DNA from: Pseudogymnoascus verrucosus
Lineage: Eukaryota
DNA: 64,000 bases
NCBI GenBank assembly: GCA_001662655.1
Contig: KV460237.1
Strand: one strand, 5' to 3'
Each line of letters starts with the position of its first letter. Position 1 is the first letter of the stretch. A program made the position numbers and the translations under genes. Below the pieces are notes generated by a model that worked only from the letters and a program-made list of their open reading frames with translations, did no database searches and had not been told where the DNA came from. Positions 11,376-20,364 of the stretch are shown here, in pieces.

Positions 11376-14300
11376 TTACGCTGAGTTTTTGAATATTGAG
11401 TTCAAGCTTTTACGGTTAATATAGAAGCTTAAAACTTGACCGTTACGAAACCCAATACCCAATTGATCGCCTATGGCATCATGACATTGTACCTCGAAAT
11501 CTAACGGTAAACGAAATATAGGCATCGCTCCATAGTAAATCCACTGATTATCTACCCAGAGATTTTCTAACGACTCGAAGCCAAAGCTTTGCCTATTTGC
11601 AAGGATGCTTTCGATCTTGATCTGACCGAGATTTGTTATGAGGTGTCGGCCGTTTGCGGAGAATTTTAGAGAGAAGACAGGCTTTGAGGTCTTGATTTCC
11701 CGCCATGCACGGTGCCTGAGATGACTACCTAGAGTGCTACCAAGCAATTTTGAGACCTTTAAAGCTTTGGTAACGTCCCACAGCTTGATGGTGTTGTCAT
11801 CAGACCCTGTGGCGATCTGCTTGCCGTCTGGCGAGAAGGCTACAGCCTCGACCCAGTCCGAGTGGCCTGCGAGCGTCTTCTGGAGGCCGCCTGTGCTAGC
11901 ATCCCATAGCTTGATGGTGTTGTCCGCGGACCCTGAGGCGATGTGCTTACCGTCTGGCGAGAAGGCTATAGCTGCTACTAAACCTAAGTGGCCTACAAGC
12001 GTCCTCTGGAGGCCGCCTGTGCTAGCATCCCATAGCTTAATGGTGTTGTCCCCAGACCCTGTAGCGATCTGCTTACTGTCTGGTGAGAAGGCTATAGCTG
12101 CCACTAAGCCTGAGTGACCTACGAGCGTCTTCTGGAGGCTGCCTGTGCTAGCATCCCATAGCTTAATGGTGTTGTCATTAGACCCTGTAGCGATCTGCTT
12201 GCCATCTAGTGAGAAGGCTATAGCCTCAACCCAGCCTAAGTGGCCTACAAGCGTCTTCTGGAGGCTGCCTGTACTAGCGTCCCATAGCTTAATAGTGCTG
12301 TCTTCAGACCCTGAGGCGATGNNNNNNNNNNNNNNNNNNNNNNNNNNNNNNNNNNNNNNNNNNNNNNNNNNNNNNNNNNNNNNNNNNNNNNNNNNNNNNN
12401 NNNNNNNNNNNNNNNNNNNNNNNNNNNNNNNNNNNNNNNNNNNNNNNNNNNNNNNNNNNNNNNNNNNNNNNNNNNNNNNNNNNNNNNNNNNNNNNNNNNN
12501 NNNNNNNNNNNNNNNNNNNNNNNNNNNNNNNNNNNNNNNNNNNNNNNGCCGCCTATGCTAGCGCTAGCATTCCACAGCTTAATGGTGTTGTCATTAGACC
12601 CTGTAGCGATCTGCTTGCCATCTAGTGAGAAGGCTATAGTTCTAACCCAGCCTAAGTGGCCTACAAGCGTCTTCTGGAGGCTGCCTGTGCTAGCATCCCA
12701 TAGCTTGATAGTGTTGTCCCTAGACCCTGAAGCGATGTGCTTACTGTCTGGCGAGAAGGCTATAGCCTCAACCCAGTCTAAGTGGCCTACGAGCGTCTTC
12801 TGGAGGCTGCCTATGCTAGCATCCCATAGCTTAATAGTATTGTCCCAAGACCCTGAGGCAATGTGCTTGCCGTCTAGCGAGAAGGCTATAGCCTTAACTA
12901 AGTCTAAGTGGCCTACAAGTGTCTTCTGGAGGCTGCCTGTACTAGCATCCCATAGCTTAATAGTGTTGTCCCCAGACCCTGAGGCGATGTGCTTACCGTC
13001 TAGTGAGAAGGCTATAGCCCCTACTAAACCTAAGTGGCTCGCGAGCGTCTTCTGGAGGCTGCCTGTGCTAGCATCCCATAGTTTGATGGTGTTGTCCCTA
13101 GACCCTGAGGCGATGTGCTTGCCGTCTGGCGAGAAGGCTACAGCCTCGACCCAGCCCAAGTGGCCTGCGAGTGTCTGGATTAGAGAAGCCCACGAGTCTT
13201 CCACTTGGGGGAGCGTTCCTAACCACATAGGAAGCTTGTCTAGGTTGTTTGTCCTTACTACACTTGTTCGAGGGCTGAAGACTATCGCAGAGCTATAAAT
13301 TTGTAATGGCCAAGTTGCTATTGTCAGGTAGTGTCGCAACAAGAAACGTGTAGCATCTTGCACAAGATTCGATAGCGAAGGGTTTTTTTTTATCTAGACG
13401 AGACTTCAGTCAGATAATGACATTGGAAATTGATGTCTATTACGCACCACGTCTGTAAATGTACTTAATGTCTCAATAGCGCTTGGGAGCCTATCCAATA
13501 AACTCAGGCATTCTAGCCACTCTAATAACCTTGTGCGGAGGAATGTACTAGCCTCCCCTTGCTCAGCGAGAGCATTTTGTACCAGCGTGGTTCGCTTGAC
13601 GCACTCCATGTGCTGAACCCAGAAGGTAGCTGTATAGTCCACGCTAATCAAGAGTGCATTCGTTTTCATCGATTCCCTAGTTGAATCAGGTCGCGACAGA
13701 TCAGCAAGATTTATCTTGAGTCGTTTGGTTAAATGGGAGAGACAATTAAGCGCAATCTCACCATGCCCATAATGTTCATAGGAGTTGAATATAGATTGTC
13801 CATCCCTTCCAGCCAGGAAATCTCGAGCCGATTGATGAACAAATTCGATGTCTGTTCCTCGTCTCTTGACAAATGAAGCACATCGATCAACCCACACTTC
13901 AATAGCAACCAATTGTTTAGACAGACCTGTCACGCTACCCACCTCTTCCACATTCAGAGGTCGATAGGCCAGCATCATTGCCTTGAGGAGTCGCATACAT
14001 CCCTTGACAACGGCTGACTCGCCTTCATTAAGCTGATTGAATACCCGACGATAAAAATCAGGCAGATCTGGCGGCAAATCTTGAATTGTGGTCAAAACCT
14101 TGTCCCGGTGTACGCTCTCGAGTCTCCTGCATACTAAGCTTACCCACAACATTGTGTCCTCAGCCTTTGCAGCAAGCTCAGTCTCTACCTTCTGCCGCAA
14201 TGTTGGTCCATAATGGTGGCGACGGTCGAGTTCAATTGCTTTTGAAGCGATGAAAGTCTTTACAACTTCAGAAAGTTGTTTTTGGTTGAGCTCTAAGCTG

Positions 14301-15674
14301 ATCCCTACCTGATCAGATCCAGCTAACAACTCTCGCTCAGCGCTATCCAATGGTCGACTAGTCAGCAGCCATTTGATTTTGGAGGGTTGATCGAGCCCTG
14401 TTCGGACAATAAGCTTTAGAAAATCTGCCATGCCATCATCTTGGCACTCATCAAGAGCATCCACGATCACGTACACTCTCGGGCACTTGCATCGGCTTAG
14501 CATCTCTAAAAAGATGTTCCAGAGCGTTCGCCACGACGTAACATCCTCATCAAAACGTTCGTTTGTAGTATCCCAACGGCGTCGCAAAGACTCTTTGAGA
14601 TCCTTTTGCTGAGTAACTAATTGCAGAATCAGGCCCTTAATGATTGCTTCAAGGGTTTTAAGCTCATAATCGGCCTCTTGACAGAAGAAATAGGTCACCA
14701 CGGTAGATTCATCTTGTGGACGTGAAAGTCGCTCAATAAGGCCAATCGAGATCATAGTCTTTCCTTTGCCCGCGCCGCCCTTGATCCAGAGTAAACATAC
14801 ATCCTCTCCATCCTTCCAACTAATATATCTAGGGTCTTGAAGAATCCAGTCGATGGATTTAGGGAGCAACTTGTCCTTATTCTCTTTCAGCCGATTTTTG
14901 ACAGCTAGCGTATCAGGGCATCGCAGAGACCGGAGACAAGATCGATCTATATCATCGGGAGTTGTAATTTTATGATTATTAACTACAACATTTGTTAACT
15001 ACAAAACCCTTGTACAAGGACTATGACATTGGCATACCAATATGATTGGTTCCATTGTACTGATTGCCTGGGCCGTTGAGCTGATTGCCAGGACCATTAA
15101 TGTACTGATTCCCCCCCCCCAAGTGAACGTTTTGGGCGCCACTTCCATAGTGTGCGTATGCAGGCGTCTGCTCAAAGCCGTCAGGTAAAGAAGGCTCCAT
15201 CTTAGTCACCTCCTCGATGGCCGTTGCCAGCTGGTCTTTGCCTCTTGATGTCGTTACTTCTGGAAACCTCGTTGCTAAGAGTTGCAAGTCGTCTAAAATC
15301 CTCCCAACCAGACTCTCCACACGACCGCCTTCGCCAATCGTCCGAGCAGCTTTCATATATCGGTCCCACCTTGAGTCACCCTCTCCTGGCATGACCTTTT
15401 CAAACAACTCTTGAAGTTGTATAGCTTGAACTTTACAATCCTCTAAAGTAGGTGTAAACGCAGCCTTTATCGACTCGTCCGTCTCGTTATTAACGTATTC
15501 TTCCGCATGTTCGAGGAGTTTTAAGATAAGAGGGAGTTTCGTTGCCGACTTTTTGAAATTTGTTGGGAGGCCAACTTCGTCTTCGACAGCCTCGTAAACT
15601 TTTTTGGTGGCATCAATGATTGAAATGATTGCTGAGATGGTGCCAAGGACAAGACCTGCTTCAGCGCCGGACAT
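11376..15674 (-). CDS. Fungal NLR: SesA (HeLo-like) domain, sigma-type amyloid motif, NACHT, high-identity WD40 repeats (HET-E-like); introns 14983-15037 and 13394-13447
   Basis: MSGAEAGLVLG...GLP...LPL...MEPSLPD N-terminal domain; P-loop GGAGKGKT; Walker B VIVDALDEC; FVHQSARDFL; PLQIYSSA; GH..WV..[VI]AFS.DG..IASGS.DNTIKLWD repeats. Both introns restore the frame. Confidence 0.92.
11775..13165 (-). repeat. Array of at least 10 near-identical 126-bp WD40 units; true number unknown because of the gap
   Basis: 126-nt periodicity on both sides of the N run. Confidence 0.95.
12322..12547. other. Assembly gap inside the WD40 array
   Basis: Run of N. Confidence 1.
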
Positions 15675-15925
15675 GATTTATCGAAGCTGGAATAAGTCAG
15701 AAGTGTATGCAGCAAATTGAAAGTCTTCCTCACAGGGTTGTCAACAAATGGTAAGCAGATAATGAGTGCGGAGTAGTATTGAATGAGGGGATGTTGACAC
15801 AGTAATGAGACTGGAATGATGAATGAGATTGAGGTTCAGCCTCATAAAACGGCTGGGGTGTCGCGCTAAAATGCTACCCCGCTCCAAGGGTTAGCGCGAC
15901 GGCCCGTGGCTTAACCAGAGTTCTA

Positions 15926-16581: not shown

Positions 16582-17702
16582 TGTAAGGCGGCCCATCACG
16601 TGAGGCCGCCCTGAACTTAGGGGTGTTGGAATATGCTTAGTCACCACGCAGCTGAGCCACGTCAACTCACATCGTCGATCACGGACATATAGATTTATAT
16701 ATTCCTATGATCTATCCTACTATTCTAGTTATCTATCTAATCATTATAATTGATGCTGTTGATACCACTGTGCCCGTCACCTGTGATTTGCCTCGTCCAA
16801 TGCTGTTCCGCTGCTCAACACACCAGAAATCCAACAAGGGGCTGCCCCCTAGTAGGGCCACTAGGGCTCGGTAAACCAGGGTATGTAGGAACGTAGGAAC
16901 GTAGGACATAAGGAGCTGGAAGCCTCAGAAGGAGGCCTCCAGCCGATAGTCGCTGTACATACGTAGACCTACTGTCTTGCAATACGATCTCACTTCCCGC
17001 CTTCTGACCTGGTTCCCTGGACTCCCGTGAGACCCTAGCTACTACGCTTTACAATTCTATCGGCTCAACCCATATCTAGCCTACCAGTTCAGAATGGCTA
17101 GCCAGGAAAGAAGAATCACCTAGGCGACCTCGGGAGGAGCGACGCCGACTGTAGAAGCTGTCGAGCCAGACTTGAGGCCTACTGCCACAGAAGTCGACAA
17201 CTCTGCGACGGGCAAGCCCTAGGATATGGCCTTAAAGCTAGCCGACCTTTGGAAGAGGATGGACGAAGAGAGGGCCTATATTAATACCATGGAAGAAGCC
17301 GTACAGCTATTCTGACGGTCGCACGGTGAGGACTATAGCTCCTACCCTAAGGAAGTTAGGGCTTTTACAGAGAAGCAAGCCTAGATCTAAGAAGAAAGTC
17401 GTTAGAAAAGGCAACGCTAAGAGATTGAAGAATGGGCAGGACCCTAAATAGAGGATGACCACGAGACTGCCTCTACTGTATCTAGGGAGGTAACGCTAGC
17501 CTATAGGCTAATGGGTAAGGTTAAGTAACCTAAGGTGTACAGGGGCGATTCTACCTAGGAACTTAACGAGTTCATGGCCTCCCTCTACGCCATTTTCTGC
17601 TACTAACTAGGGGCCTTTCTGACTAAACAAGCTAAGGTGGCCTTCGTAGCCTAGTACCTAGAAGGCGATTCTATGAAGGAATGGGACAATCGATGCGCGG
17701 CC
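16582..17702 (+). mobile_element. Truncated LTR retrotransposon relic: LTR ~16582-17053 plus RIP-mutated gag
   Basis: TGTAAGGC...GCTTTACA inverted ends; frame from ATG ~17093 with many TAG/TAA stops and Gag-like KVYRGDST*ELNEFM...AKVAFVA*YLEGDSMKEW. Confidence 0.75.
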
Positions 17703-18021
17703 TAGGGCGAAGGCGTAAGAGGCGTATAATGCAAGGAGGTAGTCTCTCTATACGAGAGGGAGAGGATATCCTTTAGAGTGCTGAGGTTGAAGCTCAAGTC
17801 CGTATAGAGGTAGCAAGTGAGACTACTCGGCAGGTGGGTTCTAAGGGCCAACAACGGCGCTGTGGCCGATGTGAGAAGATCGTACATAATACCCGTACGT
17901 GCGAGAGGCGCCAGGAATCAATTGCAATTGAATGGGGGTCATTATGTAGGGTGGTGGTAGTGTAGTAGTAGGAATAGTCAATTTTTGGTGTTGTGGTGCG
18001 CAGCTCGCATGTGAAATACGT
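17703..18021 (+). mobile_element. 3' end of a Fot1/pogo DNA transposon
   Basis: Encodes RRIMQGGSLSIREGEDIL*...QRRCGRCEKIVHNTRTC (transposase C-terminal zinc knuckle); terminus ...GAAATACGT followed by TA. Confidence 0.8.
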
Positions 18022-18465: not shown

Positions 18466-19275
18466 CTACAGCGCCATCACCAACGCCGCAACCCCCACCA
18501 CAGCCGCCCCAACAGCAACCTCCATCCTTCCCGGTGCAGCGCCCGGCAGGTTAACGTCAGAGGTCTGAGTCGGTGTTGAATCCTGAGTAGTCGATGCGGC
18601 ACCGCTAGTCGTCGTCTCGCTGCTCACATCGCCCGTCGACTTCGGCAAATCGGTGCCGGTACCTGTTGTCGATGACTGGTAGGTACTATCAGAGCTCGTC
18701 CCATTCCCCCTCCCCAAACCGACGCGGTGGTCCCCAGCAGAACCAGAAGGGCATTCCCCATCCAAACTCCGGCAGACACATGCATTCCCCACCGCCATGA
18801 GCCTAACACCACAATAATCCGTTCCACAAGCATCACAAGACTCAAGACACGTCGCACCCCACCCACAATACGGACTAACGCTATAAGCGCCTTTAGGGTC
18901 GTCGTCACCGCTACCCGACCCGCCGCTGCCACTCTCAGAACCGTCCCCAGGCCACGCGCAGGACCCCGCCTCGTTGGCACAGATGCACGACCCGTCTGTG
19001 TCCTGGACGCCGCAGGAGGTGGTTCCGCACCCCTCGCAGATTTCTTTGCATGTTGAGCCGTGGCCGCAGGTTTGTCGCGCGCCTAGGGAGAAGACTTGTC
19101 GTCCTTTGATGTGAGAGGAGGCGTGGGTGATTGCCCTGGCGGATGGGGTGCGGGCGGTGTTCTGTTGGGGCGGGGAGAACATGATTCCGTAGACTGTATT
19201 GTCTGCGGCGGCGACATCTGCGGCGGCAATGCTGGCGAGGGCCGTGATCAGGAGGGGGATGGTTGGGAACTTCAT
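18466..19275 (-). CDS. Secreted, probably GPI-anchored Cys-rich protein with two 8-Cys modules
   Basis: Signal peptide, duplicated CG.G.TC...C..CG...CG...C.C......C module, Ser/Thr stalk, hydrophobic C-terminus. Confidence 0.85.
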   Translation of the reverse strand: MKFPTIPLLITALASIAAADVAAADNTVYGIMFSPPQQNTARTPSARAITHASSHIKGRQVFSLGARQTCGHGSTCKEICEGCGTTSCGVQDTDGSCICANEAGSCAWPGDGSESGSGGSGSGDDDPKGAYSVSPYCGWGATCLESCDACGTDYCGVRLMAVGNACVCRSLDGECPSGSAGDHRVGLGRGNGTSSDSTYQSSTTGTGTDLPKSTGDVSSETTTSGAASTTQDSTPTQTSDVNLPGAAPGRMEVAVGAAVVGVAALVMAL

Positions 19276-20364
19276 CGTGAGGAATTGGGGGTAAAGGGAC
19301 GATTGGATGTGTGAGCTTCACACGGGGAACGCGAGCTGCGGTGCATTGTACTTATACCATGGCACGATGGCCAGGGTCAATCACCCCAGGAACAGACATA
19401 ACAATAGGAAACAAGACTAACTTAAAATTGAGGCTCTACTGCGCCTGCCATGACAGAAAGTTAGAGCTCACGGTCGAATCACACCCGATGTGGTTGGGTC
19501 TAGCAAGGGCTTATATAGGCAGATAGCAGACAGGCAGCCGTTGTTGCCAATAGTCTTGTTAAGGCCGTGAGCTAAAATCTTGGCAGGGCGAAAATGACCC
19601 TGATATCAAGGGTTGGCGTGAAATGAGTCTGTTGGTTTATAAATGAGTGTTGGTTTATACCGCAAACCGTGCACGCACAGCCCCGTGCGCAGACTTTTGT
19701 CGCTGTATTGTGTATTTCAAAGTTGTGGTCGGTTAATATACTGTCAGATAATTTCTTCTTGGTGTCAGGGCCAATGGCGGTCGGGCCGGTGCGTGACGGA
19801 AAGGAAGAGATTAGCTTTGAGGCAATTTTGACAGCACCACCCCTGCCTCTAATCATGCGCTGCCAAAGCACCATGGTTCAAATATAAGTTCCCAACTACA
19901 CATGCCCATAATTAAAATCATGGATAATTCACATTATGGCCTTTGAACGAGCTAAATTGCTGTTCTGACGCCTCAGCCACGCCAAGTCCCTCTTCCCATG
20001 TCTAAGCAACACGAAATCCCAGAAATTGAACTGGAGCGAGAAATTCAATCATCTTTAATCCCATATATTAACATCTAGCTATGCAAGACTTGTCCTTAGA
20101 CCTTCGAGCGTGCCATTGGCTAGCCAGGATACAAAACCCTCCACTTCTGATGAGTACAAAAGCTATACACCCGTGCCCTATCAAGATATGATGCCCCAGA
20201 CTTCAACTCTACCCCATATTAAATAAAATCGACCCTCAACTCGAGGGTCGATGGAAAATGGTAACCCAGCCTTTAAAAACGCCCAGTGTCGCCATCTCCG
20301 GTCAACATCTGTTCCCCCCGACCCCCCAAAACGCTCTACATCCCCCCTTCCCTCTCCTCAACCT

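Follow-up and report, generated by a model that had tools for sequence, protein, structure and literature searches.

The gene and its two predicted products

The window analysed here, a 64-kb stretch (64,000 nucleotides) of DNA from Pseudogymnoascus verrucosus, carries on its minus strand an NLR gene whose N-terminal region combines a SesA domain with a sigma-like motif. Its features are the following:

15734..15793, minus strand: non-coding first exon, 5' UTR, its extent given by RNA contig cover
15687..15733, minus strand: 47-nt 5'-UTR intron, GTGAGG...CTGAC...CAG, with a consensus branch site; spliced, with the joint 15686/15734 seen in runs X1, X4 and X5
15038..15674, minus strand: shared coding exon, supplying aa 1-212 and one further base to each predicted isoform (from sequence)
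15588..15668, minus strand: hydrophobic N-terminal helix, aa 3-29 (model helix), a candidate membrane-inserting segment
15276..15638, minus strand: SesA / HeLo-like helical domain, PF17107, E 2.3e-36
15038..15152, minus strand: sigma-like G/N/Q-rich motif, four GxGxQ units, without D, E, K or R; pLDDT <50 as a monomer
14983..15037, minus strand: intron 1, a 55-nt phase-1 intron whose donor GTATGC has C at +6; seen unspliced in RNA
15021..15023, minus strand: in-frame TAG within intron 1, end of the 217-aa SesA-sigma protein (from sequence)
14994..14999, minus strand: non-consensus branch site GTTAAC, TTRAY class (from sequence)
14955..14955, minus strand: end of the unspliced X1 RNA contig, four unaligned letters beyond; a weak hint of a short-transcript 3' end
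13448..14982, minus strand: NACHT exon, P-loop GGAGKGKT at 14779-14756 (Pfam and sequence)
13394..13447, minus strand: intron 2, 54 nt, consensus branch CTGAC (sequence and the annotation of P0121)
11376..13393, minus strand: last exon, near-identical 42-aa WD40 repeats, with an assembly gap at 12322-12547 (Pfam and sequence)

An earlier note on this DNA had described a SesA domain, an amyloid motif (15152-15038) and a 55-nt intron in that order, and all three are present in the sequence. The coding frame opens at an ATG at 15674. If intron 1 (full pattern GTATGC...GTTAAC...TAG) stays unspliced, this frame meets a TAG 14 nt, or five codons, into the intron and gives 217 codons ending GMPMS-stop, as the earlier note had read it; that note was also right to call GTTAAC non-consensus. 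The stop by itself was rejected as evidence: when the interior of intron 1 is shuffled, 68% of the shuffles contain an in-frame stop, and 22% have one within the first six codons. A stop at a single locus is therefore not above chance, and support has to come from RNA and from relatives.

Removal of intron 1 is predicted to join the same exon to an NLR body. The SesA match spans aa 13-133 (125 bits, Pfam cut-off 26.3) and is accompanied by a weak HeLo match; the downstream frames match NPHP3_N (E 1e-37) and NACHT (E 7e-8), followed by C-terminal WD40 repeats of high internal similarity. The SesA domain lies N-terminal to the motif, and the NLR thus neither begins with the motif nor is without an effector domain. 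The donor/acceptor pair 15037/14983 gives the longest open frame among all pairs tested. Since the NACHT frame has no Met upstream of the P-loop, it needs the intron 1 splice. A protein 100% identical to the predicted one, P0121 (VE01_07574, Pseudogymnoascus verrucosus), is annotated with the same intron 1 junction and with intron 2, which places effector domain and NOD in one polypeptide. The spliced SesA-amyloid-NACHT-WD40 product of the earlier note is predicted from intact frames, annotation and conserved splice signals; its junction is absent from the RNA contigs. That absence, together with several NCBI annotations that end at the stop, would suit a free-standing sesA gene that merely has the remnant of an unrelated NLR behind it, with the splice an annotation artefact. 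Such an arrangement seems scarcely credible: the NACHT frame is intact and without a start of its own, conservation extends to the donor codons, the position of the branch site and the acceptor, and RNA from the NACHT region is present.

In the structural model, aa 3-157 are helical and aa 171-217 unstructured. A fold search returned MLKL (Z 9.1, rmsd 3.6-3.9, 113-132 residues aligned) at rank 7-8 amid unrelated bundles, the search being non-specific for a helical bundle. The motif, with its four GxGxQ units in aa 176-213, has His as its sole charged residue and fits the definition of the sigma motif as a threefold repeat of GxGxQFN / GGTQNINT sub-motifs given in PMC3321046. Against the Pfam NACHT_sigma profile (PF17106) this protein scores 11.8 bits (E 0.27), below the cut-off of 27.6; 30/32 family members match the profile at E <=1, the best at 6e-8, and NACHT_sigma is annotated on 38/120 relatives among the matches listed. 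A predicted complex of four copies of aa 168-217 received a score of 0.02 and counts neither for nor against assembly.

Part of the motif (15060-15101) is a tandem 7-aa repeat, NGPGNQ[LY], present in two or three copies among close relatives (P0002, P0124, P0128). A motif profile found neither a second copy in the 64-kb window nor an adjacent motif-bearing gene; in 224 kb of sequence from the same genome its only match was a weak one, to the L004 paralogue. No separate gene with the motif was found in this genome (G000) by genome-wide motif searches, which are insensitive. Just upstream of the gene, a stop-riddled stretch (16900-17950) resembles, by eye, a decayed mobile-element remnant, and farther on a Cys-rich frame (18466-19317) with a signal-like start, a hydrophobic end and no Pfam match probably encodes a GPI-anchored wall protein.

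Intron 1 among relatives

Relatives of this gene, termed family 1, were drawn from 11 metagenome loci; with two duplicates, one fragment and L016 (which has no motif end) dropped, seven remained, making eight with the window. A sole prokaryote-genome match, L033 (NYXK01000013.1) in a bacterial MAG, was also dropped, being identical to the fungal locus L011 over 900 nt and probably fungal contamination. Viral contigs contained no relatives of family 1 or of family 2, described below.

All eight loci have a phase-1 donor immediately after the motif, a stop 14-23 nt into the intron, and an acceptor with further coding frame downstream of the stop. The body that follows is NACHT in 6/8, ankyrin in L010 and unassigned in L009. 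Fourfold-site distances among the loci are 0.3-1.2, with introns still alignable. Intron identity past the stop is 0.64 versus 0.63 at fourfold sites; the stop itself has 0.81, and positions +6/+7 are invariant (1.0).

Downstream of the constant exon the loci vary. Extra sequence or a second intron lies between a short second exon and NACHT at L007:2116-2368 and L013:1676-1800; the NACHT of L013 is of a different type, which suggests that the NLR body swaps behind a constant SesA-sigma exon. At L010:3175-3990, ankyrin repeats follow that exon, with no NOD frame seen.

The branch site of intron 1 sets it apart. Read from the sequences, it is TTRAY in 7/8 family 1 loci and CTRAY in 0/8, against CTRAY in 7/8 UTR introns and 4/4 second introns of the same loci. 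Within this genome, TTRAY occurs in 3/3 motif-bearing SesA-NLR genes and CTRAY in 4/5 boundary introns of motif-less SesA-like genes. Eighteen candidate introns called blind to the branch comprised 12 with CTRAY, five with neither and one with TTRAY, the last being intron 1. For comparison, four Fusarium species have CTRAY in 91% and TTRAY in 4-5% of introns, with T at +6 in 66% and C in 16% (PMC5677156). On read-through, 4/12 ordinary introns stop within five codons, in a set whose filter favours early stops.

How far the read-through tail is conserved was assessed in the 120 best of 194 family 1 protein matches, of which 110 could be anchored; all counts that follow are among these listed matches. 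The second tail position holds T in 79, M in 24, A, R and K in two each and I in one, the residues encoded by donor variants, and Pro is third in 92/110. Tails are 3-6 aa long in 75 proteins, at most 8 in 87 and at most 11 in 103. Neutral evolution was simulated along the tree (five roots, four rate settings, 150 runs each). A stop within six codons has a frequency of 0.68 (75/110) versus neutral means of 0.42-0.62, a value reached in 1-69/150 runs; conservation of the precise place of the stop is modest, and not clearly significant. A stop within 11 codons (0.94) compares with neutral means of 0.56-0.85, with 0-5 runs reaching it at the calibrated rate and at most 22 at the lower rate; for third-position Pro (0.84) the neutral means are 0.45-0.61, and the observed value is reached in 0-1 runs. 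In one clade the tails run to 11 aa and nevertheless finish with PKS/PKA-stop, and a few tails are long through frameshift (P0091, P0098). The tree shows 14 switches between tails of 5 and of 6 residues; these are not taken as 14 indels because recombination among paralogues could produce them. Of the conservation that the earlier note had proposed to look for in homologues, that of intron position holds, and that of the exact family 1 stop is not clearly above the neutral model. The weak branch site and the short read-through tail are conserved as well.

The genome itself yields 15 SesA matches. Two further SesA genes with a G/N-rich motif precede an NB-ARC-like/TPR body and a NACHT-ANK body, respectively. 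Both have a phase-1 intron directly after the motif, a stop after three and five codons, and a TTRAY branch. The three TTRAY paralogues are 32-38% identical to this gene. Among the motif-less SesA-like genes, read-through stops come after about 1, 10, 15, 18 and 37 codons. Apart from these, the SesA exon has a truncated copy, L002 (G000:C20:462810-463238), which is 79% identical, contains a stop and is without motif or NLR body.

A second family, family 2, is built around the L003 paralogue (38% identical) and has no sequences in common with family 1. Among the 120 best of 218 matches, ranked by a query that itself shares the tail, 110 end in [SGC][KMTE]x-stop, and [SGC][KMTE] corresponds to the donor codons GT-AAG, GT-ATG, GT-ACG and GT-GAG. 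In these listed matches the third residue takes ten states with at least 26 changes on the tree, and the stop has been lost twice. The observed 0.93 among them compares with simulated means of 0.41-0.71, and 0/300 simulations reach it in each of four settings, at a rate borrowed from family 1. The DNA context of family 2 is that of one locus, and free-standing genes may be among the 120; P0278, P0361, P0368, P0392 and P0412 are annotated with a splice at the matching place. More broadly, 85 short SesA representatives at 50% identity, a protein-only set in which fused and free-standing genes are not separable, show a donor-like end pair in 32/67 motif-bearing versus 6/18 motif-poor members, over a background of 17%. 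In many distant SesA-motif proteins the last residues are FGKD or FGKDx, and Gly-Lys codons can form a donor; such ends offer a possible route from free-standing effector to fused NLR.

These comparisons bear on whether intron 1 is an ordinary phase-1 intron, placed at a domain boundary where it aids exon shuffling, with retention as noise and the stop inherited by descent. The SesA-sigma exon is indeed annotated as joined to NACHT-WD40, NB-ARC/TPR-type and NACHT-ANK bodies, Nectria het-eN likewise has a 5' intron (PMC3321046), and the family 1 stop lies near the neutral expectation in introns that can still be aligned. Such a reading is nevertheless quite improbable in view of the family 2 stop conservation, the TTRAY sites of three paralogues as distant as 32-38% identity, and the unspliced path that the assembler retained in X1. 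Annotation itself is divided: several NCBI annotations stop at the read-through stop, and near-identical exons of two Trichophyton species are annotated once as short and once as spliced.

RNA across intron 1

RNA data consisted of assembled contigs from four runs (X1, X2, X4, X5) out of 24 listed. Runs X1, X4 and X5 belong to one study of organism A, a relative about 99% identical, and the 5'-UTR intron 15687-15733 is spliced out in each, which identifies them as RNA. Run X2 is probably DNA and does not cover intron 1.

One X1 contig of 170 nt (depth 4.5) covers 15120-14955 unspliced, with no differences and no gap. It reaches 83 nt to either side of the donor, takes in the stop and the branch site, and extends only 28 nt past the acceptor, just below the 31-nt rule applied to acceptors. 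The depth in the bins beneath it, by arithmetic from the depth table, equals the share of that contig alone. No spliced joint at intron 1 is among the joints listed for the four runs. Unspliced intron 1 RNA is therefore present in 1/1 informative run, and constant splicing, which the earlier note had named as the outcome contrary to its proposal, is not what this one contig from one study records. The contig may nonetheless be pre-mRNA. Contigs of X4 and X5 end near the G-run 15112-15123, short of intron 1. A run of ten G (15111-15120) inside the motif breaks RNA contigs and could be slippage-prone.

The four unaligned letters past 14955 are possibly the start of a poly(A) tail. Poly(A)-type words 3' of the stop differ among loci and were not counted as evidence. 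RNA pieces from the NACHT region occur at depth 2.2 in X1 and 6.1 in X4; cover is missing across most of NACHT in X1 and X5, and these data are no measure of levels.

An all-in-one NLR that uses its motif as an oligomer scaffold would account equally well for the unspliced RNA and the weak branch site; intron 1 would then limit receptor dose through decay and yield no useful short protein. Internal motifs have been proposed as scaffolds (PMC9815663), fungal intron retention often feeds decay (PMC12861292), the NACHT-region RNA pieces agree with such a receptor, and the early stop would merely avert a harmful tail. However, in 7/8 family 1 loci the length of intron 1 is not a multiple of three, and retention would bring a premature stop in any case. 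The fixed stop position in family 2, the conserved Pro and the length changes that keep the frame point instead to selection on the protein end, and the X1 contig ends 65 nt after the stop rather than running on. We consider dose control of this kind unlikely, if a serious contender, and hold it likely that the short 217-aa protein is a selected product.

Known systems and a proposed mechanism

Fungal amyloid signalling has been described in two forms, with receptor and effector as separate genes or as a single fused NLR, and the accounts in PMC3321046 and PMC9815663 leave open why some fused NLRs retain an amyloid motif within the protein and how the two forms turn into each other. The present gene resembles the Nectria haematococca ses locus (SesA, SesB, HET-eN) in placing a G/N/Q-rich motif of sigma type C-terminal to a SesA domain, in having an NLR with the same motif upstream of NACHT, and in interrupting the 5' region of the NLR gene by an intron. 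It differs in that the Nectria partners are separate adjacent genes and the NLR there has no effector domain, whereas here one exon would equip both forms with SesA and motif. Podospora NWD2/HET-S and Chaetomium PNT1/HELLP offer the model for the proposed templating of a HeLo-type effector's amyloid motif by an NLR oligomer, and the internally similar WD40 repeats recall the NWD genes. Unlike the present gene, whose function is putative, those systems comprise two genes, use the HRAM and PP motifs and have experimentally demonstrated functions.

The predicted spliced product has the same architecture as the all-in-one SesA/HeLo-like NLRs (P. anserina NWD3; Wojciechowski 2022). Internal motifs are read there as scaffolds, and the main text of that study contains neither 'intron' nor 'isoform'. 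It reports four HeLo-like plus sigma NLRs; the SesA-sigma NLR architecture looks far commoner here.

Short N-terminal proteins made by intron retention or an early 3' end are also known from the truncated isoforms of plant TIR-NLRs (RPS4, N) and from FPA-dependent premature polyadenylation, although those involve no amyloid step, are usually cut after the NB domain and have regulatory roles. Truncated isoforms do regulate full-length plant NLRs (PMC4100160), and the short fungal protein might analogously be made as a brake or decoy that binds or caps the receptor's amyloid seed. The sequence evidence for this is the same as for an effector, and the full-length protein, having a SesA domain, could kill alone. 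A decoy role is improbable all the same: the short form retains the whole SesA domain and the N-terminal helix, and its layout matches that of SesA in Nectria, without which sigma is not generated (PMC516043).

We lean instead, with reserve, towards one gene making both the NLR and a free SesA-sigma protein, a putative effector templated by that NLR. The proposal of the earlier note, a free effector supplied by intron retention or intronic polyadenylation, is to this extent partly supported. Lying directly after the sigma-like motif, intron 1 with its weak branch site and donor would leave much RNA unspliced, as seen at contig level in one relative. Translation of this RNA would stop five codons in and release a stable 217-aa SesA-sigma protein resembling free-standing SesA effectors. 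The contig end offers a weak hint that retained RNA is polyadenylated early, probably about 65 nt after the stop, and may thereby be spared from decay. Spliced RNA, on the strength of intact frames, annotation and conserved splice signals, would encode SesA-sigma-NACHT-WD40. Upon ligand binding, this NLR would oligomerise, its clustered motifs would adopt an amyloid fold, and the NLR amyloid would then serve as template for the short protein, which carries an identical motif and would be the more abundant of the two, leading presumably to membrane damage. Receptor and effector motifs come from the same exon and consequently cannot diverge or be split by recombination.

The chances are about even that this extends beyond one gene, SesA-motif-NLR genes across ascomycetes keeping a weak, stop-bearing intron after the motif so that each specifies a receptor and a prion-like executioner. 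Splicing or early polyadenylation would then set the receptor/executioner ratio in a third, widespread architecture. We regard the arrangement as a real feature, supported by comparison among relatives and to a limited degree by RNA; with its putative function it would add a further form to amyloid NLR signalling. In the literature searched, which included few subscription journals, no single fungal NLR gene was described as the source of both partners, and the supplements of PMC9815663 and PMC3321046 may list such loci.

Pairing a sensor with a small cell-death protein has so far been known to need two genes. If the proposal is true, a single gene would suffice, forming an intermediate between the two-gene and all-in-one forms; it would explain the internal motif and keep the two motifs identical for free. 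RNA processing would be the control point of fungal immune cell death, and many annotated fused NLRs would hide an unannotated effector.
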